DNA of 64,000 nucleotides. Origin: an uncultured virus (IMG/VR IMGVR_UViG_3300022822_000015) (Duplodnaviria > Heunggongvirae > Uroviricota > Caudoviricetes). The stretch lies in IMG/VR virus record IMGVR_UViG_3300022822_000015, one strand, 5' to 3'. Of the stretch, positions 3,076 to 56,300 are shown piece after piece; positions within the stretch are counted from its first letter, which is position 1; every line of letters begins with the position of its first letter. The notes below the pieces were generated by a model that was given only the letters and a program-made list of their open reading frames with translations, was not told the DNA's origin and made no database searches. The position numbers and the translations under genes were made by a program.

Positions 3076-3995
3076 TATAAAGTACCTTCAGAGAATGGAT
3101 TGCTTTCTGTAAAATCAATTATTTCATTGGCCTCAGTTTCAAAGTCGAAGTTTTGTGAGTCCTCTGTATTTGGAAAAACACTACCAACTGTAGAAGTAGA
3201 AATATCAAACACTTCTGTTATGTTGGCCGTTGCGCCAGATACTGAACCTAAAATCATATTTGCGTTGACTTCTCCAGTTATGAATGAATGAAAGAGACCA
3301 TCATTTGTTTCAATGTCTATTACTTGCATAACCGCTTCTGGATGATTGATATTGACTACTTCTGCTTTTATGTTAATAAGAGGTTCGTCTTGAATAATCT
3401 GTGTTATAGTTTCGCCTTGTATGAATGTACCGGTAATCAGACCTAATTGGAATCTAGTAGTATAAGCATTAACTTCGATTGCATCTATTTCTGCTACACC
3501 GGTATTAAAGTCTTCATCATTCATTTCGAATAGTCGTGCCTGCATCTTATATACAGGAAGATTCGATAGTTGATAAAAAGGCATTTCATGTTCAACAAAC
3601 GATATCTCGAAGAAACTGTTAGACATAGGCAAATAAATAAGGTCGCCTTCATTAGGTCTATTTTGAAATTCATCATTTTCAAAAGATCCAACCATCTGTT
3701 CCCATCTACGTTTAGCAACTATAAAGGTCGCTTCGTCTCTAATTTCAAGGCCAAATTTAGACATAAGATTGCCTTCACCTTCAAAGCCTTCGTTGCCTTC
3801 GATATAAACTTCGATCATGTATGCATCATCGAATTGAGACTCTACATCTTCATTTAATATAGAATCTCGGGTAACAATATTACGAGGAAGGTAGTAAATA
3901 TCTTGTCCAGCCCACTTAACAGATTCGATGATTAAATCCTCAAAAAGAATCTGTTCAGAACGAACCTTGGTTGATAAGTATAAATTAGTTGGCAT
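3075..3995 (-). CDS. 14: T4-like neck protein (gp14)
   Basis: EQILFEDLIIES, YYLPR, SKFGLEIRDE, RPNEGDLIYLP, PFYQL, C-terminal DFTESNPF. Confidence 0.92.
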   Translation of the reverse strand: MPTNLYLSTKVRSEQILFEDLIIESVKWAGQDIYYLPRNIVTRDSILNEDVESQFDDAYMIEVYIEGNEGFEGEGNLMSKFGLEIRDEATFIVAKRRWEQMVGSFENDEFQNRPNEGDLIYLPMSNSFFEISFVEHEMPFYQLSNLPVYKMQARLFEMNDEDFNTGVAEIDAIEVNAYTTRFQLGLITGTFIQGETITQIIQDEPLINIKAEVVNINHPEAVMQVIDIETNDGLFHSFITGEVNANMILGSVSGATANITEVFDISTSTVGSVFPNTEDSQNFDFETEANEIIDFTESNPFSEGTL

Positions 3996-4039
3996 TTGAA
4001 CCTGCTTTGTATTTAGTTGTGGTTTCTATAAAGTATGTG

Positions 4040-4795
4040 TTAACCAATGAAAAAATCTAAAGGAGCCTCCCAGTTAATTTGCATATCAGTTTCTAGTTTT
4101 TCAACCTCAGCATTCGCTTCTTCCCACATTATCTGTCCGTTCATAGTAACACCACCTGGGAGAAGCATGCCTTCAAATTTCTTCAAATTTGTTCCCCATT
4201 GGCGCTTAATTAATGCTGTTATGTAACGTTTCAGAAACATATCATTATAGACTGAAACGTAAGTTTCTGGGTTAATTATAACAGATGCATCTAATATGAT
4301 CCAATCATTTTCCTTTATGTCAGTACCCCACTGAATGTAAAGGTGTAACTTATTCTGGTGACGACTAAATCGTACTTGACTTGAAGTATTGAACATATCA
4401 CGAGCTTGAGTTAATTGCCCTTGCATTTGAGAATAATATGCCATGCCTTGAAATCCACCCGATCTTAAATCGTAGACGTCATTATACGCCATTTGATAAT
4501 CGATATTAAAGATGCCGCCGCCGCTTCCAGCGCCAGATGTGTTGAGTGGAACAATTCTAGTAATAACTGATATGTCTGAAGGCAGGGTTACAAATTCATT
4601 AGAGATGTCTGCCGCGGTAATTTGTATTTTGTAGTATGAATTTAAAATAGCGTCTGAATGATACATCTGATAAAATTCAATACCTTCGTCTACTCGGTCA
4701 GAAACTTGATCATCATCTACATTGATCTCAAGCACTGGCGCGCCTAATTGTCTTAGACAATAATCAATAAGCTCGTTTCGTGTTGTGACTACCAT
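4040..4795 (-). CDS. 13: T4-like neck protein (gp13)
   Basis: YCLRQLGAPVLEINV, KRQWGTNLKKFEG.LPGGVT.NG. Confidence 0.93.
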   Translation of the reverse strand: MVVTTRNELIDYCLRQLGAPVLEINVDDDQVSDRVDEGIEFYQMYHSDAILNSYYKIQITAADISNEFVTLPSDISVITRIVPLNTSGAGSGGGIFNIDYQMAYNDVYDLRSGGFQGMAYYSQMQGQLTQARDMFNTSSQVRFSRHQNKLHLYIQWGTDIKENDWIILDASVIINPETYVSVYNDMFLKRYITALIKRQWGTNLKKFEGMLLPGGVTMNGQIMWEEANAEVEKLETDMQINWEAPLDFFIG

Positions 4796-12520: not shown

Positions 12521-12976
12521 CTAATAAGGTATGTCTTGTTCTACAAATTCTACTGCTGATTTACTTAGTATGTAGTTGTAGTCTTCTGTGCTGATAGGCT
12601 TACTACCTTTTGGTAGCAGTACTTTATAATTAATATTTTTTATGTAACTTATTACTTCTTCAACATCAATGTCTTTAAATAACTCTGTGTGTCCATCAGT
12701 TTTCTTTTCAGGAACCCATTTCCACTCTGCTAGCAGTTCATGTAAATGCTGTTCTAATAAATAAGGTACACCTGTTTCAAAATCTAACTTTGATCTAGTG
12801 AAAGGAATATACCTGTACGCCATAAACCAAGACCTTAGTATTTCCATCATACGGTCAGTAGATCTAGGGGCGAAGCACATTCCAATTTTATAGACAACTT
12901 CCATGTCATCTAAGGTAAGTTCCAGTATGTAGACTCTACCTACTGAAACTTCTGGTACTTTCCTAGTAGCAAACAT
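12521..12976 (-). CDS. GIY-YIG-like (T5orf172-type) nuclease domain protein
   Basis: VYIL...YKIG....R..E, LEQHLH, DGHTELF. Confidence 0.6.
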   Translation of the reverse strand: MFATRKVPEVSVGRVYILELTLDDMEVVYKIGMCFAPRSTDRMMEILRSWFMAYRYIPFTRSKLDFETGVPYLLEQHLHELLAEWKWVPEKKTDGHTELFKDIDVEEVISYIKNINYKVLLPKGSKPISTEDYNYILSKSAVEFVEQDIPY

Positions 12977-12979
12977 TTA

Positions 12980-13432
12980 TTAATCTACAACACACCAATC
13001 TTCAGACATTATATCTATTACTGTACTGGCATAGGGTATTTTTCTTGTGCCTTCTTCACAATCAGGAATAACAAAATAAGGATAAGAAACAGTCATTTCA
13101 GAGTTTGTAGAGTTACGAAGTACTAAGTACATACCTTTTCCATTCCAACCTGCTCTACATACTTTAGAACCACGTTTAAGTAATTCTATTGCGTGACCAA
13201 ACGTTAAATTACCACTAGTTTTATATGAAGTTTCAAACACATCTTTAGGTGACCAACTGATGTAACCATCGTAAGCAGCTGTATTAGGAAACCCTGTTTC
13301 AAGATACTCAACTAAATAACCTTCATCAGTACCATCTTCGTCATCAGGTAATACCCAACCTCGAAATTCGTTGTAATCTAAACGACTCATAGGTTTTGCA
13401 GACACTAATTTTGTTCCTACAAAAATTTCCAT
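12980..13432 (-). CDS. tad2: Tad2-family (DUF2829) nucleotide-signal sponge with an extra N-terminal domain
   Basis: TFGHAIELLKRGSKVCRAGWNGKGMYL and D.MSEDW; N-terminal GYLVEY...YISWSPKDVFE. Confidence 0.8.
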   Translation of the reverse strand: MEIFVGTKLVSAKPMSRLDYNEFRGWVLPDDEDGTDEGYLVEYLETGFPNTAAYDGYISWSPKDVFETSYKTSGNLTFGHAIELLKRGSKVCRAGWNGKGMYLVLRNSTNSEMTVSYPYFVIPDCEEGTRKIPYASTVIDIMSEDWCVVD

Positions 13433-13710
13433 TAGAAAAATTCCGGCTGCGCTACTGCTCTGGTTGCGTACATTAAACCGGTCTGTAAATCTGTTTTAGC
13501 TAGTGCCAAGAATCGTTCAGGTGTTGAATTTTTAATGTGGTCTTTTTCTTTTTTAGTCATGTCTGGACTGTATTGACTAGATACGTGTTTAGAAATTTCA
13601 ATAAGTACTTCTTCCATTTTAGGACCAAGTGCTTTAATTTTGTTCATTAAGTCGATTTCGGTCTGTGAGAGTTCACGGTATCCAGTAATTTTGCGGTGCT
13701 GGTTGTCCAT
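13432..13710 (-). CDS. acb2: Acb2-family anti-CBASS cyclic-nucleotide sponge
   Basis: MDNQHRKITGYRELSQTEIDLMNKIK and LALAKTDLQTGLM...RAVAQP closely match my recollection of Pseudomonas phage Acb2. Confidence 0.88.
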   Translation of the reverse strand: MDNQHRKITGYRELSQTEIDLMNKIKALGPKMEEVLIEISKHVSSQYSPDMTKKEKDHIKNSTPERFLALAKTDLQTGLMYATRAVAQPEFF

Positions 13711-13743
13711 CTTTAAATCCTGTATAGGTTGTTTAAAAATTAA

Positions 13744-13772
13744 AATATACACTATGTACTTTTTGTAGTCAA
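13744..13772 (-). promoter_or_regulatory. Sigma70-like promoter for acb2-tad2
   Basis: TTGACT-17 nt-TATATT, about 34 nt upstream of the acb2 ATG. Confidence 0.65.
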
Positions 13773-13818
13773 TAATAAACGGATCTTAGGCTGGTACGTA
13801 GAACTAGGGGGTACTGTC

Positions 13819-13908
13819 TGGCAGAAAGAGAGAGATTTGAACTCTCGGCCCCATTTCTGGGACTTTCCCTTAGCAGGGGAACGCCTTAAACCACTCAGCC
13901 ATCTTTCT
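13819..13908 (-). tRNA. tRNA-Ser(GCT)
   Basis: Cloverleaf with long variable arm, anticodon loop CT-GCT-AA, encoded CCA. Confidence 0.92.
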
Positions 13909-13914
13909 TTAATT

Positions 13915-13992
13915 TGGGGCTTTACACAAGTTTTTACACTTACTGGTTAAAACACGTTAACCATCCACAGCTATCAAACTGTGGGATAAAGC
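13915..13992 (-). ncRNA. Non-canonical tRNA-like RNA ending in CCA
   Basis: 7-bp acceptor-like stem, three internal hairpins and C-CCA, but no D-loop GG or TTCRA. Confidence 0.5.
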
Positions 13993-13994
13993 AT

Positions 13995-14069
13995 TGGTAG
14001 CGATAACGGGATTCGAACCCGTGATTTCTAGGTTATGAGCCTAACGCCTTACCACTTGGCTATATCGCA
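13995..14069 (-). tRNA. tRNA-Met(CAT); initiator versus Ile2 identity uncertain
   Basis: Cloverleaf, CT-CAT-AA loop, 1:72 mismatch, CCA. Confidence 0.9.
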
Positions 14070-14099
14070 AACTGCACAGTACTATATTATTTATACTAA

Positions 14100-14173
14100 T
14101 GGAAGACCTGTCTGGAATCGAACCAGAATAAAAAGATTCAAAGTCTTTCGCATCACCATTCTGCCACAGGTCT
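14100..14173 (-). tRNA. tRNA-Gln(TTG)
   Basis: Cloverleaf, CT-TTG-AA loop, GGTTCGATTCC, CCA. Confidence 0.92.
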
Positions 14174-14177
14174 AAAT

Positions 14178-14252
14178 TGGCTCCAAAGGTCGGACTCGAA
14201 CCTACAACCTTTCCGTTAACAGCGGAATGCTCTACCATTGAGCTACTCTGGA
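14178..14252 (-). tRNA. tRNA-Asn(GTT)
   Basis: Cloverleaf, CT-GTT-AA loop, GGTTCGAGTCC, CCA. Confidence 0.93.
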
Positions 14253-14294
14253 ATAATAAAATGTAAGTGCTAGGCGCTAACACTATTCGCACAT

Positions 14295-14330
14295 AAAAAA
14301 ACCCCCAGTACTTTCGTAGTGGAGGTTTTT
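14295..14330 (-). terminator. Intrinsic terminator (attenuator) upstream of the tRNA cluster
   Basis: AAAAACCTCCACTAC-GAAA-GTACTGGGGGTTTTTTT: GC stem, GNRA loop, U7 tract. Confidence 0.8.
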
Positions 14331-14366
14331 GTCTTCTAGGTTTTTCTTTACTTTTAGGTATAGATA

Positions 14367-14435
14367 CTACTGAAGATCACCTCCACGGTGCTGTTTGAAA
14401 TTCGGTTGATGTTTATTGTTAAAGTAAGTTTTCAT
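14367..14435 (-). CDS. Putative attenuator leader peptide MKTYFNNKHQPNFKQHRGGDLQ (22 aa)
   Basis: Short ORF whose 3' part (GTGGAGGT) is the exact complement of the terminator's left arm. Confidence 0.6.
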   Translation of the reverse strand: MKTYFNNKHQPNFKQHRGGDLQ

Positions 14436-14484
14436 TTTTGTACTCTATCAAGTATTTATTGTTTAGTACAGTACTTATAGCAGT

Positions 14485-14727
14485 TTATTTTATCCACACG
14501 TAATTTGTTATTTGAGTACTATATTTAAAATCTTTATGTAGTACTCCTTCAGTAACTTCTATTTTACCAAATTTTACTACTACTGCAGGAATCCCTTCAG
14601 CCCTTAGTTTGTCTGCTAACCAATGAAGATAAGGTCCATTTTCTATTACGCTGTGTGCATAGTTTCTGCTTGGAGCAGGACCATTGTACTCACATTCATT
14701 TATTTCTACTTTTACACTTTTAGCCAT
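14485..14727 (-). CDS. Hypothetical protein
   Basis: 80-aa ORF packed in the minus-strand operon. Confidence 0.6.
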   Translation of the reverse strand: MAKSVKVEINECEYNGPAPSRNYAHSVIENGPYLHWLADKLRAEGIPAVVVKFGKIEVTEGVLHKDFKYSTQITNYVWIK

Positions 14728-14730
14728 TAT

Positions 14731-14997
14731 TTACACAGCTTTAATTATTACTAAATTTGATTCAGCTGCTGTAGTGCCTTTTGGTACGTACAATCTGCAT
14801 TTTACGTTATTATAGTCTACTGTATAAAAATCAGTTAACACGTAAGTTTTCTTTTCTTTTTGTACATCACCATGAACTACGTACTTTTCTATTTCTTGGT
14901 GTAATTCTTTAGCATAACCTAATGGGCCACACCAATTACCATAACCACTAGGTTCGTGTACGTAAGTGTAGATATCATAACCTTCTATCATTAACAA
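14731..14997 (-). CDS. Hypothetical protein
   Basis: 88-aa ORF overlapping the upstream stop. Confidence 0.6.
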   Translation of the reverse strand: MLMIEGYDIYTYVHEPSGYGNWCGPLGYAKELHQEIEKYVVHGDVQKEKKTYVLTDFYTVDYNNVKCRLYVPKGTTAAESNLVIIKAV

Positions 14998-15392
14998 TCA
15001 CCCCAACGTTTAAATAAGATAGCACCTTTGTTTTGATTACCATGTCGAAGTAAACTAGGGGATAGCATGTACACACCGTTATGCACTTTTTTAAGTAAAT
15101 TTTTCTTGTACAGTTTTTGGAACAAAGTAGAAACAGTAGGTACTGTTGTATCACATTCTTTAGCAATAAAAGCAAATGTTCCTATGATACGGTTATTACT
15201 ATCTTTGTTTTTAATAAGCCACGCCAAAACAGTATTAGTAGCGGTACCAGCTACACCAATGTATTCAGCTAATAACTTAGCATAAGACCTTTCCCAATAA
15301 GCTTTAGGAATCTTTTCAATAAACATATCAACAGGCATTATTTCACCTGTACGATCATTTACCATTGTGTACGTGTCTTCATCTATATTCAT
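14991..15392 (-). CDS. RepL-like winged-helix DNA-binding protein
   Basis: IIGT...IAKE...TVPTVS..FQKL...NLL.K..NGVYMLSP. Confidence 0.65.
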   Translation of the reverse strand: MNIDEDTYTMVNDRTGEIMPVDMFIEKIPKAYWERSYAKLLAEYIGVAGTATNTVLAWLIKNKDSNNRIIGTFAFIAKECDTTVPTVSTLFQKLYKKNLLKKVHNGVYMLSPSLLRHGNQNKGAILFKRWGDC

Positions 15393-15500
15393 ACTTAAAT
15401 ATTCTTTAGTACTTATTAAAATCGTATTTTAGCAGTTATATAAGTTGTTGTCTACATTATTATAGTGTTTACTAAAATACGATTCTACTAATGGGTGTAT

Positions 15501-16175
15501 TTAATCTACGTACTCTTGTATTTTGTACGGAAGTTTAAAAAATAATATCCATTCATTTCTATGAGCTACTGCATCTTTTAACTTTACAAATCTGTCAGAC
15601 GCTACTAACTTTCCTTCATGTTTTAGTACAGAAGACCATTTTCCTGTTTTTTTAACTAGTGTTATGCCTACGTACCCACTAGAACTATTTTTATACACTC
15701 TTTTGTTAACTGCTTGTTCTTGTCTTGTAGCCCACGTACAGTTGCCGGGGTTATAACCACCATTGTTGTCAATACGCTCTATAGTCAGTTTTTCTTTGTA
15801 CCCACTGTTTTTAGCCCACTCTATAAATGTCTCCATTGAGTTTGCCCATTCAGAACACATATCTATTCCTCTATTACCATAGTCAATATAGCTTTTATTT
15901 TTTGGGTTAGTACATCTGTGAACCATCGCGTACCAGACTGCTGATATTTTGCTTGTTGAAAGTCCGTGAGTAGTTCTTACTTTTGATACAGCTTCTTTAG
16001 CAAAGCAACCACAAGATGTAGATAGACCTGATTTTAAATTACTACCTCTTATAGTTTTTTCATTACCACACTGACATTCACATAACCAGTAATGAGTGTT
16101 CTTTACATCTTCTGCTCTACTAACAACAGTTAGTCTTGAGTATACGTTTCCTACAATGTCTTTAGTGTTTACCAT
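15501..16175 (-). mobile_element. HNH homing endonuclease with AP2-like C-terminus
   Basis: WLCECQCG, M..RC.N...Y..YG.RGI, IERIDNNGGYNPGNC.W, SSGY.G; start MVNTK after AGGAG. Confidence 0.88.
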
Positions 16176-16619
16176 TACGAATCTCCTGTTAAAGCAGTAG
16201 CATAACATACTAAACAATGTTTATCACTACATTTACTAAAGTCTAATGCCACATACCCCTTAACTTATACAAATATTCTTTAGTAGACACTATTAAATAT
16301 TATAGTGCCGTAGGGCTAAGAGCTAGGTGTGTCAAGGGGTACCTACCTTCTGCTTATATACTCTATGGTCCTTCGTTCCGCTTTGCTACTAACAGCTAGT
16401 TTTCCTCAACTACTTTATCGTAAACAAAGTGCCTTATCATACCCGTTAACAACCACTACATTACTAAACGTAAATTTAGAAGACATTCCAAACTCCTACA
16501 CAAATAAAATTATATTATATATTAAAATAATTTTTTATTAAATATTAAAATAAAATTTATAAAAAATTTAAATAGGGTCGGAACAAATACTAAATTTTTA
16601 ATATAACTTCTAAAGCAGT

Positions 16620-31959: not shown

Positions 31960-32739
31960 ATGAAACACCCTAAATATGATGAAGTTAAATTACTGGTTGA
32001 TAATGACATAGCTGTTTTGCTAGTAGGTCCAGCTGGTAGTGGTAAAACAACTATTATAGAAACAATATCAAAAGAAAGAGATATGGAGTTTTATGTTATA
32101 TCTATGACAAGACAAACTACGTTATCTGCACTAATAGGTTTTAAAAATATTAATGGTGACTATACATCTACTGAACTTAGGAAAGCTGTTGAATTTGGAC
32201 ACTTATTATTAATTGATGAAATAGATGGAGGTGATCCAAATGTCCTACTATGTCTTAATACGTTAGAAAATGGGTTTATGTCATTTCCTGACGGCGTTGT
32301 CAAAAAACATAAAAATTTCAGATTGTGTGCAACAGCTAACCCAAAAGAAAAACAATACACTGGTAGAGCAGTATTAGATGAATCTACGTTAGACAGGTTT
32401 GACAATATTTTTATAGATACAGACGCAAACCTAGAAAAAGAAATTGTTGGTGCAACTATTCATGATTGTATGAATGATGTACGAAAAGTACTAAAAAACT
32501 GGAATCACCAAAAAACAATTTCTATGCGTGATGCAATCCGTTTTAAAAAACGTCATGACATAAAATTGATAGACGGATTTGTAGAAAAACTTCTCGATAA
32601 TGAAGATAGTATGATAGATAAATATAACACTTTAAGAGAAGTTAAAACTTTTATAGTACAAGAGTTATGTCCTACAGTAGAAATTTTGTACAAAAATATA
32701 ATGAAATCACAAGGAATATTCAATGAAAACACTACCTAA
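31960..32739 (+). CDS. MoxR/CbbQ-like AAA+ ATPase
   Basis: GPAGSGKT, LIDEID, ATAN, LDRF. Confidence 0.85.
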   Translation: MKHPKYDEVKLLVDNDIAVLLVGPAGSGKTTIIETISKERDMEFYVISMTRQTTLSALIGFKNINGDYTSTELRKAVEFGHLLLIDEIDGGDPNVLLCLNTLENGFMSFPDGVVKKHKNFRLCATANPKEKQYTGRAVLDESTLDRFDNIFIDTDANLEKEIVGATIHDCMNDVRKVLKNWNHQKTISMRDAIRFKKRHDIKLIDGFVEKLLDNEDSMIDKYNTLREVKTFIVQELCPTVEILYKNIMKSQGIFNENTT

Positions 32740-46929: not shown

Positions 46930-49900
46930 TTAGTAAAAAACACCCTTAAAAACATTCTCAGGAACTACGCTTCCAACTCCAACAGACTCTAACGGCATGT
47001 GTGCAATACCACCGTAACGAGTACTCATGTTAAGAACGTTAGCACTAAAGATAGTGTTCATGTTTCCTGTTACATACTCTTGTATAACCATTTCAGTAGA
47101 CAAGTTAACAGGTTTATCTTTAACCATTCTGTAAATAGCTTTCTGTATACGTAACCAGTAAGAAGGAAACATTAGTATACCTACGTCGCTTAGCTGTTTA
47201 ACAGCCATAGGCAAGTTTTCTTTGTAATCAGGAAAAGAGTCAAGTACGTGTATTCGTGCTTGTGAAGGTGTCATTTTCTCATTCTGAATAGCATGTCTGT
47301 ACAGAGTTTCTTTAGCAAACACATCAATCCTATCCGTTACACTAGAACCTAATCTTACAATTTCACTATTTGGGCTAGTAGTAAACTGAGATACATAACC
47401 TACAACATCCTCGTCCGTCTTCAATTCCTTAATACGATCAGTAACCATATCAAGTTGCTGTTGAGCACCTTTACCATAACCAGATTTACCAACTATCCCG
47501 CCAATATGACTTAAGAAGTCCTCACCTTGAAAACCAATCTTATTTAACGTTTTAATAAAATGAGCTACAACATTCTTATTACCTTTTCTGTCTGTAAGCA
47601 TGTACTCAAGTGCTGTTTGAACATCAGCTTGGAATCCAGAAGAAGCATCAGAATTTTTAGCTACAAGATCAGAACCTAGAGAGTTAATAAAACCTTTGTT
47701 ACCTAAGTTACCTACAGAAGTATTATCAATCTGAGTTTTTAACGCAGTTATTCTATCCTTTATAGCTTGATTGTCTTTAGTACCTACTAACCTAACTTTT
47801 AGCTGAATAATTTCATTAGTTATATTTTGATACTTATCATAGTCTTTAGATATTTCTAAAAAGTTTTTACCTATAAACAATGGTGAAGCACCTGCAACAC
47901 TTAAGTAAGCTACGTTAGACATAACATCAATAGCCCATTTAGCAGGGTTTACAACAACCATACCTATTTTAGAACCAGCTGTAAGGTCTTTTACTATTCT
48001 CATTGCCCACTTCATGTGGTGATTATCAATAAGCGATTTAGAAAATCCACCTATAAGTAAATGAGACATGTCTTTTCTTACTAGCGTAATTTGGTCACTA
48101 AATTTTACACCGCTAGTTCCTTTTACATCAGAAATTCTACCACCAACTGGTTTGTATCTAGCTCTAATAGACTTGTCTAATGTGTTGTAAGCTTTGCCAT
48201 CATCTAGCTTAACAAACCAAGGGTTGTCCATGTTATCAGAATCAACTACTTCTTTTAACTTACCTAGATCTGTATCGTTTGTAGCAAGAAATCTATTTTC
48301 AGACATAACTATGTTATTTCGTATTATCTGAGAATCCTTAATAGCCATGCTGTGTGCTGCACCTCTAACAAGAGTATTTACAAAGTCAGTCTCTATACCT
48401 AAAGTTTCTTTTTCAGCAGGACTAAGTACTACTTTAAATTTGTTACTTTCAGCTTTAACAACGTTAGAGTAGTTTATTTGACTAGCACTAGTTACGTCTA
48501 CGTCTGTAGAACTCAACTTTATGTCAGTGTATGCTCCACGAAGTTCTGTAGAATCAATAAGCTTTTTGTAAACAATACCTAAATTGTCTTTAGTTGGATT
48601 TCTTAATACTTTCCAACCTGTTTCTTCACCTATTTCATAAGATCTTAAATCTTTAAGTTCTATAGCTTTTGTTTGATGAGATTCTTTGTAGTACTCAGGC
48701 AACATACTGTCTCTTAAACCTTCAGTACCTTCTACACCTAGCATAGTAACTCTATTAGCAATACTATTGTCTTTAACTAGGTTAACTAAATCAGTTTTAG
48801 CTAGGAATGACTCAAATTCTTTATTACCTATTTTTTGTATGGACTTAAGAGCTAATAACTTTCTAATGTCTACACTAAATGTAGCACTATCTGACATAGC
48901 ATAAGTAGAAGCTAAGTTGTACAATTTGCCACCTTCTTTAGTACCTGCCTCAGTTTCTACAGTACGTTCTACGTTACGTTCAATTAAGTGATCTACATCT
49001 CTAATAGCAGACTTACTAACTTTTTTTATTTCAGTCTCTAACCGGGTTACTTCAGCGTCTATTTGACTGCTTGTAGTAATGTCACTAGCAAACACAAAGT
49101 AATCATGTAGCGGTAATTGAGTTACAAACCTGCCTATAGTACTAACCTCATCTTTAGACACACCAGTAAGTGCTTTTTTAAACTCACTTTTTTGAAAAGC
49201 AATAGAAGAAATTTGCTGACCTTCCAGTAAAGCTGAATCAGCTAACAAATCTGCCTTGTTAACTTTATTAGTACCTTCACCAGTAATAGTTTGAACTAAA
49301 CCTTGAAGTGCTTCAGACCCTTCGTAAATGCCGGATAATTTATCAGCAGCATCACTATAAAGAGGAAACAACCTTTTCATGTTTTTGTCTAAAGTGTTTA
49401 ATAAACGTTTACCTTTTCTTTCAATTTTACTGTTAAGCATACTAGATACAGCAGCATTTAAATAACGAAGTGAAGCTTTGTCTTGCATATCAGCAGCACT
49501 AGTTGTTTGTCTATTTTTTCCAGAAAACAAAACTGTTTCAAATTGTTTTTGCATATCTGTAATAAAGTTTATGTCTTCTTCTCTTTTACTTTTTCCTGAA
49601 ACAATAACACCATTAATAGCAGAAAATAACTTTTCAGCATTAGGATCACCAATTTTAAAATCAGCGTAAGTAACATTATTAATAATAGTTATTACTTTAT
49701 TTTTGACAAATTCTAATACTTTAGCTAATTTATTTTTAGAAGTGTTATTTAGTGAACTGTACACTTCAGCAGCTACATCAGGTTCTGAATTCATAATAGC
49801 AATAAATTCAGATAACATAGTTTCTTGTGAAGAATTTATATCAATGTAATCCATTCGTTCTTGAGTTTTATTACTAAAAGTTTTTCTTAAAACATGATTC

Positions 49901-52900
49901 ATAGTTTTATCTATGTAAGCCATGTTTAAGTCTAATTGAGTACTGGTACCACTAGTTTTATTAGCAAATCTTTTAACCCAATCAATTACAACTCCTGCTG
50001 TAAAACTGTGAACTATTTCATGTTCAATAAGTTCTATTCTAGTTTTACGATCAGTAGAATTTTCTGAAATAACTACAGTATCAGTTTCAGTATCAAATTC
50101 AAATTCTTCACCTATTCTTACATTAGAACTGTTAGATCCTTCAAGAAAACTTTTAATAATAGGTGATTCTTCTTTGTACTGCTCTAATATAGTTTCTACG
50201 TCTGTAAGTGACTCAGTAGCTGTTTCTGGCTCACTAGCAGTTGTAGTAGTATTAGGAGCAGCATTATCAAATGCGTCCTTCATAGCTGAATTAGAAGGGT
50301 TAGCAGTAGCAGGTTCAGCATTAGGAACAGTAGCAGTCTCAACTTCTGTATTAGCATCAGCACCAGCAAACTCTCTGGCTTTTATACTGTTACCAATAAG
50401 AGCGTTAGTCTTCATGTTCATTCTTTCACTGTTAGCTATTTTAGCTTTAGCAGCTACTCTTGCATCAATCTTTGCTTTAAGTTTAGTAAACTTATCTGAC
50501 TTAGCTAGTGCAGGATCATAAAACTCAATAGAGTTTAGTACTTGTTGATGAGTGTCATACTCACCTAAAAGTCTTTTATTTAATCTTACGTAAGCTTCTT
50601 CTACAAGGCGTACAGTCTCTGTTGTGCCAATTATCTGATCGTGTACGACAATTGCACCGCTATCACCTAGGACTTCGTTTATAGCGTGATACATAAGCCC
50701 AGAGTCTATTCCGTGTATAACAGACACATCCATTATAGATTGAAACAGTTCTTGTTTACGTGTTAGTACTGTGTGGCCACCTTCTTTAGCTAGGTCACTA
50801 TCTCCGGTTAAAGGACTAGATACTTCAACAATTTTTGTAAGAGGCATACCATAAGTTTTAACTTGGTCAATACCAATACCATCTAATACAGCTCCAAAAG
50901 GAAGTACTTTCATTCTATGGTTATCTTTAACTTGAGTAGCTAAATTATAAATGTCAGCACCATCTTTTCTAAAGTCTTTTAGGTAAGCTTCGTAAATTTC
51001 TGCCTGCATTATTTCATACAGTTGTTTAGGAACACCTTTAGTAATAAGAGCAGATTTAATATTAGAGTACAGACCTGATATGTCTTTTAAATCTTTACTG
51101 TCAGCATTTTTAAGACTTGGTGAATCCATTAGGTCACCTAAGTAATCTCTAATGTTTTCGTCAGCTAGGTTGTCTATAATACGTTTAGCTAGGGTGTCAG
51201 CCATAGATTTAACAGCTCCTTTAGGTCCCTGTCCGTATATAAATACCATAGTAGGATCTTTAGCAAAGGCTCTTTCACCTTCTTTAGTACCACCAAATAA
51301 CAAGTTTAAAGTAGTTTGTAATAATTCTCTTACGTTGCCTTGGCCTATGTCTGGTGACATAACTAAACTGTCTTTTTTATTAATAAACCTGCTAGTAGCA
51401 TCTGACATAAGTGCGTAAACGTCATCTATTTTATTTTCGTCTAGTACTAAATTTCCATCTGCATCTGTAATAATACCTATGCTTTCCATAAACGTTTCTA
51501 CATTGGCGTTAGTTCCTAATGCTTGTTGAAATGTTAATGTACCACCCTGTGCTGTAGCGTCAGCTGAATCCATAAGCTCAGTTTGTAAAGTGTCACCAGT
51601 ATTATCTCTAATATCTTGAACACCTTTTAAAGTTACTAACAATGCTGCGTAGTCTACGCCTTGAAATCTTTCAGGTAGGTTACTTAAAGCTACTATTTTA
51701 CGTTGCAGAGTTTTTGCATTTTCGTAACTTTTAAAGTCTTGTAAAGCAGCATCTAGATTAGCATTGCCACCTTCTACAATTTCTTTATAAGTCAGTTCTT
51801 TATCATCTAGTGTTTCTTTAATGCTGTACACAAGACGGTTAAAATCAAAAGACTTTACTTTAACTGACTGAGTACCACTAGTAAGCATGTGTCTGCTTTG
51901 TTTAGATGCATGAGCGTTTAACACACTGTTATCGTAGTAAAGTCTTATGTTTCTACCACCTTTCATTATCATGTGCAGTTCTTCAGGATTACCTTCAGAA
52001 TTAACAAGCTGGTTATAAGTTTCTATAATATCGTCTAAAGGTACTGTTTTAGATAAGTTTTGACCACTAACACTTTCTTGCCTATCAACAGAGTGATCAT
52101 CAGAAGTTTTAATTCCAAATAAAGACTTAATCATTAAAGGTTTATTTTTAAACTTGTCAGTTAAAAGTTTTGTAGCTGACTCACCTGTTTTGTCAGTTTC
52201 TTCTTTAATAAGTGCAAATAAATCATGTACTGTGTTATTTACGTAAAGAGGATTATCAAATAATTTCTGTCTAGCACTTTGTGTACTAGGAGATTGAACA
52301 TTACCATCAGGATCACTTTGAGCTACATCAACTGAACCGTCCTGTTTACCTGTGTAAGGCATAGTAATATTAGATGGCTGTGTCACATGTCTTACAACAG
52401 ATAACGTGTCTACTATGGTACCTAGTTCGGTACCGCTTAAGTCAGCTGCAGTTCTATTAAGAAAATGAGATGACTCCTGAGACAAAGTATCAGTAAGTTT
52501 ACCGGAAGAACTAACTTTGTATTTAGAAATGCCTAGTTTACTTGTATTTAAAGAAACACTTTTAGCATTTGTTGTTGTAATTTTCTTTGACTCAAAAGTT
52601 TGTGTTATAGCTTCACTGTCAGTGTAATCACGAATAGTAGTTACATCATCATGAAAATTTACATAGCCTTTTTCTTCAAGTAGCTCTAGTGCTGCTATAC
52701 CTTGAGTGTAATAAAGTTGCTCAATTTCTGCTGCAGTCTTAGGACTTTCTTCCATAGACTTGTATCTAGCTTGGTTTTTGTACATCCATTTACGACCAAT
52801 ACTAGCAGCTAGCCTAGACAATGGTAGTACTGGAAGTATTCCATCTACAGACAATTGACTCATTTGTACGTCATTATTACGTGCTTTGTCAGACTCACCT

Positions 52901-53241
52901 TTAACTGCTTCCATAACTTCATGAAGTGCTATAGCTTTTGAAATACTGTCTTGATCTACATTATCGTTGTCTATACCAATAATATCTTCTTTAAAAGTAT
53001 CAGCTTTTTGACCAGAATTTAATATTCTTGTAAGAGCATTCTCTATTTTTAAAAGAGTAGGTTTAGATTCATCTTTACCCGGAAGTCCTTCAACACTATT
53101 AGTATTTACAAGTCTGTGAACATCTTCAGGTGTAATATTCCATACATTAAAACGCATGTTTTTTTCTGTATTAGGATCTATTTCTACACCATTAAATTCT
53201 TGAATGTATTTTAAATATAGTTCTGGTGAAGGACAGGACAT
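46930..53241 (-). CDS. Virion RNA polymerase: catalytic domain, zincin motif and C-terminal domain (N4 gp50-like, lacking the N-terminal domain)
   Basis: GRNIRLY, motif A SADATAQG, motif B RAFAKDPTMVFIYGQG, VIHGID, motif C VVHDQ, HEIVH; one Cys in 2103 aa. Confidence 0.88.
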   Translation of the reverse strand: MSCPSPELYLKYIQEFNGVEIDPNTEKNMRFNVWNITPEDVHRLVNTNSVEGLPGKDESKPTLLKIENALTRILNSGQKADTFKEDIIGIDNDNVDQDSISKAIALHEVMEAVKGESDKARNNDVQMSQLSVDGILPVLPLSRLAASIGRKWMYKNQARYKSMEESPKTAAEIEQLYYTQGIAALELLEEKGYVNFHDDVTTIRDYTDSEAITQTFESKKITTTNAKSVSLNTSKLGISKYKVSSSGKLTDTLSQESSHFLNRTAADLSGTELGTIVDTLSVVRHVTQPSNITMPYTGKQDGSVDVAQSDPDGNVQSPSTQSARQKLFDNPLYVNNTVHDLFALIKEETDKTGESATKLLTDKFKNKPLMIKSLFGIKTSDDHSVDRQESVSGQNLSKTVPLDDIIETYNQLVNSEGNPEELHMIMKGGRNIRLYYDNSVLNAHASKQSRHMLTSGTQSVKVKSFDFNRLVYSIKETLDDKELTYKEIVEGGNANLDAALQDFKSYENAKTLQRKIVALSNLPERFQGVDYAALLVTLKGVQDIRDNTGDTLQTELMDSADATAQGGTLTFQQALGTNANVETFMESIGIITDADGNLVLDENKIDDVYALMSDATSRFINKKDSLVMSPDIGQGNVRELLQTTLNLLFGGTKEGERAFAKDPTMVFIYGQGPKGAVKSMADTLAKRIIDNLADENIRDYLGDLMDSPSLKNADSKDLKDISGLYSNIKSALITKGVPKQLYEIMQAEIYEAYLKDFRKDGADIYNLATQVKDNHRMKVLPFGAVLDGIGIDQVKTYGMPLTKIVEVSSPLTGDSDLAKEGGHTVLTRKQELFQSIMDVSVIHGIDSGLMYHAINEVLGDSGAIVVHDQIIGTTETVRLVEEAYVRLNKRLLGEYDTHQQVLNSIEFYDPALAKSDKFTKLKAKIDARVAAKAKIANSERMNMKTNALIGNSIKAREFAGADANTEVETATVPNAEPATANPSNSAMKDAFDNAAPNTTTTASEPETATESLTDVETILEQYKEESPIIKSFLEGSNSSNVRIGEEFEFDTETDTVVISENSTDRKTRIELIEHEIVHSFTAGVVIDWVKRFANKTSGTSTQLDLNMAYIDKTMNHVLRKTFSNKTQERMDYIDINSSQETMLSEFIAIMNSEPDVAAEVYSSLNNTSKNKLAKVLEFVKNKVITIINNVTYADFKIGDPNAEKLFSAINGVIVSGKSKREEDINFITDMQKQFETVLFSGKNRQTTSAADMQDKASLRYLNAAVSSMLNSKIERKGKRLLNTLDKNMKRLFPLYSDAADKLSGIYEGSEALQGLVQTITGEGTNKVNKADLLADSALLEGQQISSIAFQKSEFKKALTGVSKDEVSTIGRFVTQLPLHDYFVFASDITTSSQIDAEVTRLETEIKKVSKSAIRDVDHLIERNVERTVETEAGTKEGGKLYNLASTYAMSDSATFSVDIRKLLALKSIQKIGNKEFESFLAKTDLVNLVKDNSIANRVTMLGVEGTEGLRDSMLPEYYKESHQTKAIELKDLRSYEIGEETGWKVLRNPTKDNLGIVYKKLIDSTELRGAYTDIKLSSTDVDVTSASQINYSNVVKAESNKFKVVLSPAEKETLGIETDFVNTLVRGAAHSMAIKDSQIIRNNIVMSENRFLATNDTDLGKLKEVVDSDNMDNPWFVKLDDGKAYNTLDKSIRARYKPVGGRISDVKGTSGVKFSDQITLVRKDMSHLLIGGFSKSLIDNHHMKWAMRIVKDLTAGSKIGMVVVNPAKWAIDVMSNVAYLSVAGASPLFIGKNFLEISKDYDKYQNITNEIIQLKVRLVGTKDNQAIKDRITALKTQIDNTSVGNLGNKGFINSLGSDLVAKNSDASSGFQADVQTALEYMLTDRKGNKNVVAHFIKTLNKIGFQGEDFLSHIGGIVGKSGYGKGAQQQLDMVTDRIKELKTDEDVVGYVSQFTTSPNSEIVRLGSSVTDRIDVFAKETLYRHAIQNEKMTPSQARIHVLDSFPDYKENLPMAVKQLSDVGILMFPSYWLRIQKAIYRMVKDKPVNLSTEMVIQEYVTGNMNTIFSANVLNMSTRYGGIAHMPLESVGVGSVVPENVFKGVFY

Positions 53242-56200
53242 TAAATTTTACACCTTGGATTTAGTTTAGTATAAAGAGCTTCAGCTTTTTTCTTGTCAGA
53301 AATAACTTGTGAAGGTTCATTATCAAATGATTCTGTCATAACTACCTCTGTTTGTACATCAGGAAAAGCTTGTTCAAATGCACTAAGTATTTCAGGGTAC
53401 TTATCTAAAGAAGTAAAATTTCTTAGTAAGTTTTTAACTTCAGCAATATTAGTATAACCAGCTTCTTTAAGTTTTGTAATTATTTTAGGTAACGTAGGAG
53501 TAATTGTAGTAGAAACAATTGCTTGTTTAGAAGGACTATCTTCAACAGAAGCAATTATACTATCAAATGAACTTAGTTGTTTATTTATAGTGTCACGTTT
53601 CTTTTGTACTTCTGGTGTTACTTCAACAGTTTTTATTTCTTCAACAGCAGCTTCCTGTTTTGTAGAAGGAGTAGGTTTAGGACTAGGAGCAGCAGGTCTT
53701 TTAGGACCTACAACATTTTCTTTCTTTTCTGGTCCAACAACTAATTCTTTAGCAGCAGTAGCAGTATCTGTAACTGTTTTAGCAACTGAGTTGTAAGCAT
53801 TTTCTAACTGTTTATCAAATTTAGCCATACCTTCTTCAGTTTCAAGATTAGGCATATCAGGCATATTAGGTAAGTCAGGTAAAAATTCCTTAACTTTTTT
53901 TGTAAAATCTTTAGAACTTTCTGAGTCTAAAAGACTTATCAATTCTTTTGTTGATTCAGCATTTTTAAAATACTCAACTAAACCTTTAGATTTAATATTT
54001 TTAGACAACTCAGCTATTTTAGCTTTAGCTTCTGTTCTAACAGGTTTACGTATTTTATTTGATTCTAGTTTTAACTTGTTAGTAAGTACACCTAGACTAA
54101 CTTTGTTTTTGCCTTTTTTAACTGAATCAAGTTCTTTGTATTTATCTAGGGCAGCCTCAACAATTTCTAAAGAAGGTAAATCTGCTACTTTGCCATTTAT
54201 TGTATCTGAAACAAGTTTAAATACAGAGTCTGCTCCATTTTCTGAAAGAGCTGGACCTTTAGCAATATCTTTTAGCTCTGGCTTAATATTGTCTATAGTT
54301 GTTAAAGTATCGTTACTTTGACCTATATTTTTTAAAGCTTGTTTTTTATTAGCAAGAGTTTTCTGTAATTTCTTGGCTAGGTCCGGGTGTTTTTTATCAA
54401 TAACAGATATTACTTTTGTAAGATCGTTTATTTCCATATCTTTAACAGCAGCTAAAACAGTATTAGAAGACTTAATTCCGTTTCTAAGACCTAACTCTAT
54501 AACACCTCTAGCAGTACTAGATTCTAGATTTTTAACAATTTCTACACTTGCTGTACCAAGTGCAGTAACAGTTTTAACTAAGTTTTCTACAGGAACATTT
54601 TTTAGAAGTTTTTTAGCTTTTTCAGTACTTTTGTTTACAACATTAGTACCTACTTTGCTTACAACTCTTCCTACACTAGTTGCCATTAACTCTGTTTTTA
54701 CAAGAGCTTGATCACTTCTAAATTGACTAATTAACTTAGTTTTTATAGAGTTAAATTGTTTTGGATCAGCAGCAGCTTCAGTAGTTATGTTCCCATTAGT
54801 TTGTATTTTTATGGTTTCTACACCTACTACGTCATCAGCTAGTAAGTCATCAATAGTTTTAGCATTTAAAACAGTGTCAATATTTTTTTCTTTGCCTGCT
54901 ATTTCTTTATCTGCTATAGCTGTTCTTGCTGTTTCAGATTCAGACAATACTGCACGATCTGTTTCAGACAATAGTTCAAAACTTGCTTTAGTAAGTGCAT
55001 CTTGACTTATTTCTTTAACTTTTTTACCACCTCTTACAGCAACACCTGCAGTTCCTACAACAGTGTCTAAAGCTGCACCAGCAACAACTCCCGGAGCAAC
55101 AGTAGCACCTTTAACACCACCGCCTACCATAGCACCTACTAAAGCAGAGTAGTTGGCTTCATCTATATTACCTTCTTCATTAAGTTCATCTAAAGCAGAC
55201 CTAATAGAAAAGTCATCCATCTTAGCTTGTAGTATTGAATGCCAAGTTTGTAAATATTCTAGTGTTGCTTCTAATCCGCCAACAGCAGACACTTTTACAG
55301 CAGCTTTTAGTACTCTTTTAGCAACTTCTACACTGTATTTTTTAGGTATAGGAGACAATGCTTTTGAAATGTCTTTTGCATATTGTTTAGTAGCGTTTTT
55401 AGCAACTGTAACACCTGCTATAGATGGCAAAGCACTCATAAATATAGCTCTATCAAACATCATAAGTGCTAAAGCAGCAGGAGCATTAACTAATTTGTGC
55501 ATAACTGAAGACGCTTCACCATTTTCTTTAATGTAAGCTTCTTCATTTTGTTGTAATACAGCAGCAGTTGATAAACTTACTTGACTAGCTTTTTTACCAA
55601 CAGACTTAGTAGCAGCTAGTGCTTTTTGTAATACGTTTAATTTTACACCTGCATCTTTAGCAGCTACTGCATCAGTAACAGCATCTGATATATCACCTAT
55701 TGCATTAGCACCACGAAAAAGCTTTTTACCAAGCATAGGTAAACCACCAATACCAGCAGTACCAAGAGTACCAGCAATGCCTGACGCTATTGTTCCAGTT
55801 AAACTGTCTACAGCTAGTTCTGGAAGTACTTTTGCAGTTGTACTTATAGCGTCTATTACATTACCTGCTGCGTCTAAATACTCACCTTCTCTTAAACTTA
55901 TTCTAGCGTTAGCTAAACTGTTTATGCCTGAAGATGCTGCTTCATTAAGCTCTTGCCTTACCGTGGCTCTAACGTTACTTCTAACGTCAGCTTCTTCCAT
56001 TAGATTAGGGTTAGATTCTCCTGAAGCAATATTTTTTATGTTGTTAAATTCTCTATCAACAGCAGCAGTACCTAATGAGTACAAGTCATTAGCAAAACTA
56101 GTACTATTTGCAAGACCACCATTAAATCTGTCTATGTTGTTAGCTTGTTCTTCAGACACAGGAGTAACTTTAGGTTCAGGTGTAAGCTTTTGTTGCTTAC

Positions 56201-56300
56201 TTGCTATTTTGTCTTTTAAAGAATCAATTTTCATGTCCAATAAAGAAGACGAGTAGTCTACCTGATAAGCATTTCCAGCATTTCTAAATATTTCAGACAT
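53241..56300 (-). CDS. Ejected virion protein, probably the detached N-terminal domain of the vRNAP
   Basis: 1019 aa, Gly/Ala hydrophobic segments, one Cys; TAATG-coupled to the polymerase ORF. Confidence 0.65.
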   Translation of the reverse strand: MSEIFRNAGNAYQVDYSSSLLDMKIDSLKDKIASKQQKLTPEPKVTPVSEEQANNIDRFNGGLANSTSFANDLYSLGTAAVDREFNNIKNIASGESNPNLMEEADVRSNVRATVRQELNEAASSGINSLANARISLREGEYLDAAGNVIDAISTTAKVLPELAVDSLTGTIASGIAGTLGTAGIGGLPMLGKKLFRGANAIGDISDAVTDAVAAKDAGVKLNVLQKALAATKSVGKKASQVSLSTAAVLQQNEEAYIKENGEASSVMHKLVNAPAALALMMFDRAIFMSALPSIAGVTVAKNATKQYAKDISKALSPIPKKYSVEVAKRVLKAAVKVSAVGGLEATLEYLQTWHSILQAKMDDFSIRSALDELNEEGNIDEANYSALVGAMVGGGVKGATVAPGVVAGAALDTVVGTAGVAVRGGKKVKEISQDALTKASFELLSETDRAVLSESETARTAIADKEIAGKEKNIDTVLNAKTIDDLLADDVVGVETIKIQTNGNITTEAAADPKQFNSIKTKLISQFRSDQALVKTELMATSVGRVVSKVGTNVVNKSTEKAKKLLKNVPVENLVKTVTALGTASVEIVKNLESSTARGVIELGLRNGIKSSNTVLAAVKDMEINDLTKVISVIDKKHPDLAKKLQKTLANKKQALKNIGQSNDTLTTIDNIKPELKDIAKGPALSENGADSVFKLVSDTINGKVADLPSLEIVEAALDKYKELDSVKKGKNKVSLGVLTNKLKLESNKIRKPVRTEAKAKIAELSKNIKSKGLVEYFKNAESTKELISLLDSESSKDFTKKVKEFLPDLPNMPDMPNLETEEGMAKFDKQLENAYNSVAKTVTDTATAAKELVVGPEKKENVVGPKRPAAPSPKPTPSTKQEAAVEEIKTVEVTPEVQKKRDTINKQLSSFDSIIASVEDSPSKQAIVSTTITPTLPKIITKLKEAGYTNIAEVKNLLRNFTSLDKYPEILSAFEQAFPDVQTEVVMTESFDNEPSQVISDKKKAEALYTKLNPRCKI

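Follow-up and report, generated by a model that had tools for sequence, protein, structure and literature searches.

The stretch of DNA analyzed here, 64,000 nucleotides (nt) long and called the window, comes from an uncultured tailed virus, a large marine phage of the class Caudoviricetes (IMG/VR record IMGVR_UViG_3300022822_000015). On its minus strand lies a cassette of tRNA genes preceded by a leader, named module A, in which a short open reading frame (ORF) stands ahead of an intrinsic terminator and carries in its last codons a strand complementary to the 5' arm of that terminator. Inspection of the letters alone (the sequence-only reading) had suggested that this leader is an attenuator and a possible sensor of host tRNA depletion. 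We have followed up that suggestion in the complete genome of the virus and in related phages.

The tRNA Cassette and Its Leader

With 198,785 base pairs (bp), terminal repeats and a G+C content of 36.4%, the virus record is complete. This genome is called G000 and contains the window; its coordinates are those of the window plus 125,761. The large terminase of the phage is of N4 type, its nearest known phages being about 60% identical, and the genome encodes a T7-like RNA polymerase (a weak match to PF00940) together with a family A DNA polymerase. Among its 21 tRNA genes, 16 lie in a main cluster at 42–48 kb, one at 60.6 kb and four in the window, upstream of a block with genes for the large terminase and virion structural proteins. 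Ahead of the window cassette come a RepL-like gene and two ORFans, 88 and 80 codons long. Neither ORFan has a match in PHROGs or Pfam, and a protein search of the phage collection returned no relatives of the 80-codon product. Read along the minus strand, the stop of the 80-codon ORF (14485) is followed by a 49-nt spacer, the 22-codon ORF, an inner hairpin, the terminator and the tRNA genes. All coordinates given by the sequence-only reading are correct and every sequence element that it named is present in its place: the 22-codon ORF at 14435–14367, the GNRA-capped terminator with its U7 tract at 14330–14295, and the order tRNA-Asn, -Gln, -Met, -Ser, which ARAGORN and Rfam confirm. The window tRNA-Asn is not a recent copy of the other tRNA-Asn of the genome. 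The parts of the unit are as follows.

14436–14482, minus strand: 5' untranslated region (UTR) of module A, which aligns with the 5' UTR and the TGTTATAAT extended −10 of two related modules, B1 and B2 (see below)
14482–14474, minus strand: degenerate extended −10, TGCTATAAG, with which the 5' UTR starts
14367–14435, minus strand: 22-codon leader ORF, MKTYFNNKHQPNFKQHRGGDLQ, UAG stop included (from the ORF list)
14378–14390, minus strand: small hairpin CACC-GUGGA-GGUG, candidate weak anti-antiterminator, seen in the minimum-free-energy fold and in the terminator-state fold
14379–14386, minus strand: 5' strand of the antiterminator, GUGGAGGU, codons 17–19, exact complement of 14326–14319
14332–14376, minus strand: inner hairpin, present in both alternative folds; its 5' strand is formed by the last two sense codons and abuts the stop
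14319–14326, minus strand: 3' strand of the antiterminator, ACCUCCAC, which is the 5' arm of the terminator (from pairing energy and shuffles)
14295–14330, minus strand: intrinsic terminator with an A-tract, an 11-pair stem with one C·C mismatch, a GAAA loop and U7
14178–14252, minus strand: tRNA-Asn (GUU), from ARAGORN and Rfam
14100–14173, minus strand: tRNA-Gln (UUG), from ARAGORN and Rfam
13995–14069, minus strand: tRNA-Met (CAU), from ARAGORN and Rfam
13819–13908, minus strand: tRNA-Ser (GCU), from ARAGORN and Rfam

The stop of the leader lies 10 nt after the antiterminator strand, and the small CACC:GGUG hairpin overlaps that strand. The antiterminator strand is itself embedded in GGAGGUGAUC, a Shine-Dalgarno look-alike which has two copies in the genome, the other being the ribosome-binding site of a gene at window position 32227. 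A role of GGAGGUGAUC in ribosome binding was rejected, because none of the start codons ATG, GTG and TTG lies at a usable distance downstream. At the other copy (window 32227–32244, plus strand), GGAGGTGATCC lies 3 nt ahead of the ATG and contains the 10-mer GGAGGTGATC, which recurs in the genome only as the antiterminator strand of module A; the 11-mer GGAGGTGATCC is complementary to the 3' end of 16S rRNA, and would imply Shine-Dalgarno initiation in the host.

Two Mutually Exclusive Structures

Folding of module A, the check which the sequence-only reading had recommended, yields two structures that exclude each other. In one, GUGGAGGU (14386–14379) and its exact complement ACCUCCAC (14326–14319), just as previously noticed, form an 8-bp helix closed over the inner hairpin (14376–14332), with a combined energy of −20.0 kcal/mol; in the other, the terminator forms at −16.0 kcal/mol, its core hairpin contributing −10.6 kcal/mol. 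Owing to its C·C mismatch, this terminator was missed by a simple consensus terminator scan. Any transcript that stops short of the 3' arm of the terminator has the antiterminator as its minimum-free-energy fold; at the decision point, with the 3' arm just out, the terminator state reaches −23.4 kcal/mol and the antiterminator state −21.4 kcal/mol. A similarly narrow difference, between 0 and 3.3 kcal/mol, separates the two states in A and in the modules B1, B2 and C, described below.

How readily could such a pairing arise by accident? Dinucleotide shuffling of the 154-nt upstream region matched the observed duplex energy once in 2000 trials and reached a Watson-Crick run of 8 nt in 9/2000, and chance is therefore an unlikely source of the antiterminator pairing. 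Moreover, the terminator arm finds a perfect partner in the upstream strand (8/8 positions), whereas its pairing with its own 3' arm includes a G·U pair and the C·C mismatch, a pattern that would be expected if the antiterminator pairing were under selection. As a control within the genome, we folded the 90 nt upstream of each terminator, once alone and once together with its 5' arm, and compared the gain in energy with that of 300 upstream shuffles. For the three tRNA-linked terminators of G000 (A, B1 and C), the gain was −9.1, −10.1 and −8.8 kcal/mol, respectively, reached by 0, 1 and 1 of the 300 shuffles. Eight other terminators of the same genome gained between 0 and −7.0 kcal/mol, values reached by 29, 72, 92, 189, 206, 300, 300 and 300 of 300 shuffles. 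Significant sequestration of the 5' arm thus occurs at 3/3 tRNA-linked terminators and at 0/8 others, which makes it a property of the former and not of terminators in general. When the same test was applied to module B2, in the related genome G001, the gain was reached by 2/200 shuffles.

Paralogous Modules in the Phage Lineage

Module A has a paralogue, B1, ahead of the main tRNA array of the same genome (G000 48424–48198, minus strand). B1 begins with a promoter at 48424 that matches the sigma-70 consensus at 12/12 positions and carries the TG extension; its ATG at 48358 opens a 24-codon ORF, MKTLILKLEQLLKHEKLCSGDALS, followed by a GAAA-capped hairpin. The switch consists of GCGGG, which pairs with CCCGC of the terminator arm over an inner hairpin holding the stop codon, and ends in a U7 terminator. 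At 21 nt past this terminator lies tRNA-His (genome 48197, minus strand), then Glu, Leu, Lys, Glu, Leu and Leu. No promoter-like site was found between the B1 terminator and tRNA-His in the scan used throughout this work, which sees sigma-70-type promoters only. A TTGTCT-18-TATAAT element within the B1 inner hairpin was considered as a bypass promoter and discarded, since it sits upstream of the terminator; as this is the only other promoter-like site, the array appears to need read-through. Alignment of four modules, A and B1 among them, gave a mean column identity of 66% covering the 5' UTR and ATGAAAAC, the first 8 nt of the leader ORF, which are identical in A, B1 and B2. Because the alignment includes the extended −10, degenerate in A (TGCTATAAG vs TGTTATAAT in B1), A appears to be a paralogue of B that has lost its promoter. 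Indeed, the 5' UTR of module A has no −35 and, as read from the sequence, carries a G in place of the last T of the hexamer; its own promoter is therefore probably dead or weak, and the scan found no promoter-like site in this region.

Relatives of B were sought via a neighboring 126-codon protein, which led to 80 loci, four of them with tRNAs in range. Genome G001 (L028, L110 and the metagenome record L114; 88% protein identity) retains the whole B unit, B2, with promoter, ORF (MKTLLLKLEQLEKHEKSCAGMVSFS), switch and U7 terminator, followed by tRNA-His, Glu, Lys, Lys, Glu, Leu, Leu and Lys. With respect to B1, both the inner hairpin (UAAGCUUC/GAAGCUUA) and the terminator stem of B2 have been replaced by different sequences, and the GAAA-capped hairpin shows two double compensatory changes as well as one change from G·U to G-C. 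A third copy, B3 (L025 and L026), combines a rearranged 24-codon ORF with switch and terminator, and lies between two protein genes, with no tRNAs. Module C (genome 46611–46440) is non-homologous: a small ORF has UUGGGG, which pairs with CCCCAA of a U8 terminator over an inner hairpin, and a consensus promoter and tRNA-Ile come next. A C-type module is found in G001 too.

The modules share a layout: shortly past the antiterminator strand, the ORF ends in or next to the 5' strand of an inner hairpin. Each paralogue of A forms such a hairpin from a different sequence. Terminator-state folds further contain a weak helix of 4–6 bp in B1, B2 and B3 (CUCU:GGGG, CUCG:CGGG and CAACUC:GGGUUG), formed by the conserved CAACUC of codons 10–12 with a G-run, in the manner of a 1:2-type anti-antiterminator. 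The equivalent in A, CACC:GGUG, has 4 bp, and this helix is weak in all modules. In an underpowered four-sequence alignment made with MAFFT, the percentage of paired cells was reached by 8/500 shuffles and the covariation score by 36/500; as the inner hairpins are misaligned in it, we relied on the folds of individual sequences.

Wider searches added little. Pattern scans for B-type leaders returned the known copies plus three unrelated matches (L104–L106), a metagenome scan anchored on the phage tRNA-His found three records (the genome itself, a known identical contig and a module identical to B2), and nucleotide searches of the phage collection with module A and with B1 gave tRNA parts or noise only. 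From these searches and from the more distant relatives described below, the design seems confined, as far as seen, to the G000/G001 lineage.

The Leader ORF

An ORF of 22–25 codons is open in A, B1, B2 and B3 despite a two-codon difference in length, an extra codon and a rebuilt 5' end, and its stop falls in, or at most 3 nt from, the 5' strand of the inner hairpin, 6–15 nt past the antiterminator strand. Apart from MKT and G-D, the A and B peptides have little in common, a difference that speaks against conservation of peptide function. Codon content, in turn, is related to the downstream tRNAs in the B modules. In B1, 14/23 codons specify Leu, Lys, Glu or His, for which the downstream array has tRNAs (binomial P = 1.4e-4), a match reached by 37/49,922 windows of the phage proteome; in B2, 13/24 codons match (P = 1.1e-3; 223/49,738 windows). 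Neither B leader is enriched for the tRNA set of the other module. Apart from Asn-Asn in A, the leaders contain no tandem regulatory codons. The sequence-only reading had counted 3 Asn, 3 Gln and 2 His codons in the window leader, correctly, and had called its ribosome-binding site weak, which it is: the purine-rich GAG at −11 to −9 stands alone. An enrichment of codons with A in second position in the same leader (13/21) was dropped as a post hoc observation that is absent from B1.

Neither the A nor the B leader matches a family in Rfam: within window 13000–15500 and L023 4850–7000, only tRNA models matched and nothing else came near the gathering score. We could thus set aside the known leader families (His, Trp, Thr, Leu and others), with no Rfam match to the A or B leader, as well as a T-box riboswitch, for which there is no Rfam match and the leader, of about 140 nt, is too short. 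A Q-dependent antitermination unit was rejected too, since no protein of the Q families PF06530 and PF03589 was detected in the complete genome (0 matches, with working controls), although a Q protein of some other family may exist; a third family, PF06323, was uninformative, its control having failed.

Promoters and Apparent Dependence on Read-Through

Between the terminator and tRNA-Asn of the window lie 42 nt (14294–14253), in which the scan found no promoter-like site; the best −10-like hexamers recognizable by eye would start transcription inside the tRNA and were rejected. With no promoter-like site behind the terminator, the window tRNAs appear to depend on read-through.

A strict sigma-70 pattern has 43 matches in G000, all between 23.6 and 112.5 kb and none in the window. 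Most carry a TGn extended −10 and many are then followed by a near-identical ACATGTATAAATTAAT; such matches are unusual for a phage with N4-like terminase and polymerase genes. A consensus promoter with the same start of about 27 nt, AACTAAGTYGTGCCGRGGCAGGTTGGT, occurs in four copies (G000 52800(+), 75958(+), 112477(+) and 28479(−)), three of which face a divergent promoter. The four units are candidate small RNAs.

A Proposed Attenuator Gating the tRNA Cassette

What, then, is the function of this arrangement? Six copies of the module (A, B1, B2, B3, C and the C-type module of G001), distributed over two phage lineages, are in our opinion best explained by a leader-peptide-type transcription attenuator that would gate read-through into the phage tRNA cassette, a proposal for which we see an even balance of being right or wrong. 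Three things we infer: the ORF is translated, host RNA polymerase reads the stretch, and the signal is the supply of tRNA. The polymerase would enter from upstream and transcribe the 22-codon ORF, the last codons of which hold GUGGAGGU; closed over the inner hairpin, this strand would pair with the terminator's 5' arm while the 3' arm is still unmade, so that the tRNA genes would be transcribed. A ribosome reaching the stop would instead sit on the antiterminator strand and on the inner hairpin's 5' half, allowing the terminator to form and leaving the tRNA genes silent. Were the ribosome to lag or stall at or before about codon 13, the antiterminator strand would be free, and output should consequently rise when decoding is slow. 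By the geometry of the ribosome footprint, a P site at or before codon 12 would leave ORF nt 50–57 free, a range of ribosome positions that takes in Asn6, Asn7, Gln10 and Asn12.

Module A would not embody the full trp/his design with which it had been equated: it has the terminator and the competing antiterminator, but its anti-antiterminator is a hairpin of 4 bp. With so short a hairpin, the default in the absence of translation is likely to be read-through, and termination would require a ribosome that paces the polymerase. A connection with host tRNA depletion or tRNA-cleaving defense, as originally suggested, is attractive to infer. More tentatively, and with some doubt on our part, the lineage may run its tRNA arrays under a homeostat of decoding speed, with leaders written largely in the codons of the tRNAs that follow, the output of viral tRNAs going up when decoding slows because of codon-pool mismatch, starvation or a tRNA-cleaving host defense. 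Since the antiterminator of A is a 10-nt Shine-Dalgarno look-alike, and its terminator arm an anti-Shine-Dalgarno look-alike, copy A might in addition read free ribosomes.

Several observations weigh against the attenuator. Some concern the ORF. An ATG-initiated ORF of at least 22 codons arises in 364/5000 shuffles, and one with its stop at most 10 nt from the observed stop in 104/5000. The match of leader codons with tRNA content, which the sequence-only reading had put forward as a check, holds in B1 (14/23) and B2 (13/24) and fails in the window leader, where 6/21 codons specify Asn, Gln, Met or Ser, the amino acids of its own downstream tRNAs (binomial P = 0.19, not significant); narrowing the set post hoc to Asn and Gln gives a value that 609/50,290 proteome windows reach. 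Peptides rich in Leu, Lys and Glu are, besides, common. As read from the sequence, nothing purine-rich precedes the start codons of the B leaders, and A has a poor site limited to its GAG. The peptide encoded by the C-type ORF has been conserved in both G000 and G001, so that the leader ORFs may be small protein genes. Others concern the modules. The same architecture stands ahead of a protein gene in B3 and of a promoter in C, and is therefore not specific to tRNA genes; the C-type site of G001 was not significant in the arm-sequestration test (36/200 shuffles); in the underpowered MAFFT alignment, its two pairs with double changes were equalled in 126/500 shuffles. Judging from its degenerate promoter, module A could be a decaying duplicate. 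Either the host polymerase or the T7-like RNA polymerase of the phage (again, a weak match) might transcribe this stretch.

Further counterevidence comes from comparison across phages. In L008, L009 and L010, the loci that reach the junction, tRNAs start about 50 nt after the RepL-like gene, with no ORFans, leader ORF or terminator; no tRNAs are present at the locus in L019–L022, and L020 and L022 lack the module as well. The only other copy of module A, found in IMG/VR scans with the 80-codon ORF and the terminator sequence, is 100% identical over 1601 nt, so that no covariation can be measured directly. Terminator-like sites were absent near the tRNAs of five larger and more distant relatives (about 50% identity in the neighboring protein; 22 tRNA genes in four records) in the seven regions scanned. 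Conservation in homologues, which the sequence-only reading had named as a test, is thus divided: orthologous loci with 78–86% terminase identity lack leader and terminator, while the architecture is kept among paralogues. At the window locus itself, conservation of the pairing gives the attenuator no support.

Alternative Explanations

Unlikely, yet deserving of serious consideration, is a ribosome-independent RNA switch or a tuned leaky terminator, with a read-through that is fixed or answers a phage protein, temperature or polymerase speed; the ORF would then be incidental or code for a small peptide active in its own right. The two states differ by 0–3.3 kcal/mol in A, B1, B2 and C, and the antiterminator forms first, so that partial read-through needs no effector. 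Poor ribosome-binding sites, the occurrence of the architecture ahead of a protein gene and a promoter, and a window leader not significantly matched to its tRNAs are what one would expect of such a device. It does not predict, however, an ORF that four diverged copies have all kept through indels, with the stop at one structural position, nor B leaders so strongly enriched for the amino acids of the following tRNAs; as for a small peptide, the A and B products are too different in composition for a shared role.

We consider it rather improbable that the element is an ordinary terminator which ends an inserted cassette comprising the two ORFans, the ORF being a product of chance or a relic, the 8-bp pairing functionless and the tRNAs transcribed from an unrecognized phage-specific promoter. 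Such an insertion would account for the absence of both ORFans, leader and terminator from the relatives at this locus, for the 80-codon ORF having no relatives in the phage collection and for neither ORFan matching PHROGs or Pfam; it would agree also with the degenerate promoter of A, with an ORF of such size appearing in 364/5000 shuffles and with the RNA polymerase gene of the phage, whose promoters a sigma-70 scan cannot see. It is difficult to reconcile, on the other hand, with a pairing reached by 1/2000 and 0/300 shuffles, with an architecture found at 3/3 tRNA-linked terminators and 0/8 others, and with an arm complementary to the upstream strand at 8/8 positions while imperfect (G·U, C·C) against its own 3' arm. 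Furthermore, A is homologous to B1 and B2, which have a consensus promoter, an ORF and a terminator just 21 nt before tRNA-His.

Very improbable, finally, is processive antitermination in the style of lambda PR'-tR' with Q or of HK022 put, with termination by default and a phage factor or the leader RNA modifying RNA polymerase: the strong promoter, short transcript, terminator and genes of B1 and B2 are so laid out, two adjacent stem-loops 0–1 nt apart lie just behind the B promoter and resemble put RNA, and the early transcribed region repeatedly shows, to the eye, a −10-like TATAAAT, but the Q families PF06530 and PF03589 are unmatched, neither leader contains an Rfam family, and the mechanism neither needs an upstream strand able to sequester the terminator's 5' arm nor explains one.

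Other Features of the Cassette and Its Surroundings

Three further elements belong to the unit.

14266–14284, minus strand: second hairpin of 8 bp with a 3-nt loop, between the terminator and tRNA-Asn, flagged as terminator-like
13915–13992, minus strand: cloverleaf tRNA-like RNA of 78 nt ending in CCA, recognized by its fold, between tRNA-Met and tRNA-Ser
13744–13772, minus strand: promoter-like TTGACT-17-TATATT, behind the tRNA cassette, marking the downstream end of the unit

The hairpin at 14266–14284 has a central G in its loop and stands 13 nt before tRNA-Asn. In shape it recalls the promoter hairpins of the N4 virion polymerase, but its fold is statistically ordinary (z −1.12; 28/200 shuffles as stable). 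The tRNA-like RNA, already noticed in the sequence-only reading, has four arms, a 7-bp acceptor-like stem and three arms of unusual size. As a cloverleaf it is well founded (−25 kcal/mol, z −3.67; 0/200 shuffles as stable), but as a tRNA it is called by neither ARAGORN nor Rfam; a decayed tRNA, a processing signal and a decoy are all conceivable.

The TTGACT-17-TATATT element is present also in the relatives L009, L010, L020 and L022 (L009 ~4118–4150, L010 ~853–885, L020 ~4117–4147) and has an internal palindrome, GTACATAGTGTA. In all relatives seen, it sits directly behind the variable tRNA cassette. It is likely to be a late promoter, with a possible regulator site in the spacer.

Ten IMG/VR loci encode a related terminase, two of them identical to the window. 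Among the eight non-identical loci, five have tRNA genes upstream of the terminase, in different cassettes: Pro-Leu-Ser-Met-Tyr, Ser-Met-Tyr-Arg, Met alone and Leu-Arg-Leu. A hypervariable cassette fills the slot from the RepL-like gene to the conserved, probable late promoter (window 13819–14990 vs L007–L010, L014, L020 and L022); four different tRNA sets or none occupy it among phages with 78–86% identical terminase, and it is flanked by genes matching the families of HNH endonuclease (15501–16217) and endonuclease (12521–12976). In L020, a relative without tRNAs at the locus, the slot (3940–4070) is densely structured, with −73 kcal/mol over 220 nt, and includes a hairpin with UGGAGGUGAUC and a U6 terminator; a likeness between the Shine-Dalgarno look-alike of module A and a hairpin of L020 led nowhere. 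Elsewhere in the window, three very large minus-strand ORFs (46930–53241, 53241–56300 and 58803–61544; 2103, 1019 and 913 codons) have no Pfam match, and one of them might be an N4-type virion RNA polymerase.

Comparison with Known Systems

To our knowledge, the regulation of phage tRNA genes has hardly been addressed. Our literature search found no attenuator ahead of phage tRNA genes in the sources that it covered, most subscription journals, including the older literature on T4 and T5, lying outside it. What phage tRNA genes are for is an active question, discussed as codon compensation versus escape from tRNA-targeting defense (PMC10264068, PMC11464382). If the attenuator proposed here is real, with a leader made up of codons for the tRNAs under its control, it would couple decoding speed and viral tRNA supply directly in a feedback loop, built as a compact switch of about 140 nt, and it would extend leader-peptide attenuation from amino-acid biosynthesis to the translation apparatus.

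The tRNA gene cluster of T4 holds stable RNAs of no known function, and the structured tRNA-like RNA at 13992–13915, set between genuine tRNA genes, can be likened to them by position and fold only. T-box riboswitches control the synthetase and amino-acid genes of Gram-positive bacteria by binding uncharged tRNA, for which they use a long Stem I together with a conserved T-box bulge; our modules would resemble them in tying a terminator/antiterminator switch to tRNA status, and differ from them in a leader of about 140 nt that has no Rfam T-box and no UGGN bulge readable in its folds. In lambda PR'-6S RNA-tR' with Q and in HK022 put, a strong promoter gives a short terminated transcript and the genes are reached by read-through. 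B1 and B2 present the same succession of strong promoter, short terminated transcript and genes in need of read-through, but here the leader competes directly with the terminator hairpin and no Q-family protein was detected.

Leader-peptide transcription attenuators are known from enterobacterial amino-acid operons such as trp, his, leu, thr, ilv and pheA. The pheL leader is among them (PMC3082878). The phage modules differ from these attenuators in that they would regulate tRNA genes instead of biosynthetic enzymes, in lacking a run of consecutive regulatory codons, in their poor ribosome-binding sites, in the 4-bp 1:2 helix of A, with an untranslated default that is probably read-through and not super-attenuation, and in matching no Rfam leader family. 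They resemble them in having a short ORF before an intrinsic terminator, an upstream strand in or just after that ORF which competes for the 5' arm of the terminator, a stop codon so placed that a terminating ribosome would mask this strand and, in B1 and B2, leaders rich in codons related to the regulated product together with a weak 1:2-type helix. The module is thus similar to the attenuators of bacterial amino-acid operons, and would here tune the virus's own supply of tRNA.

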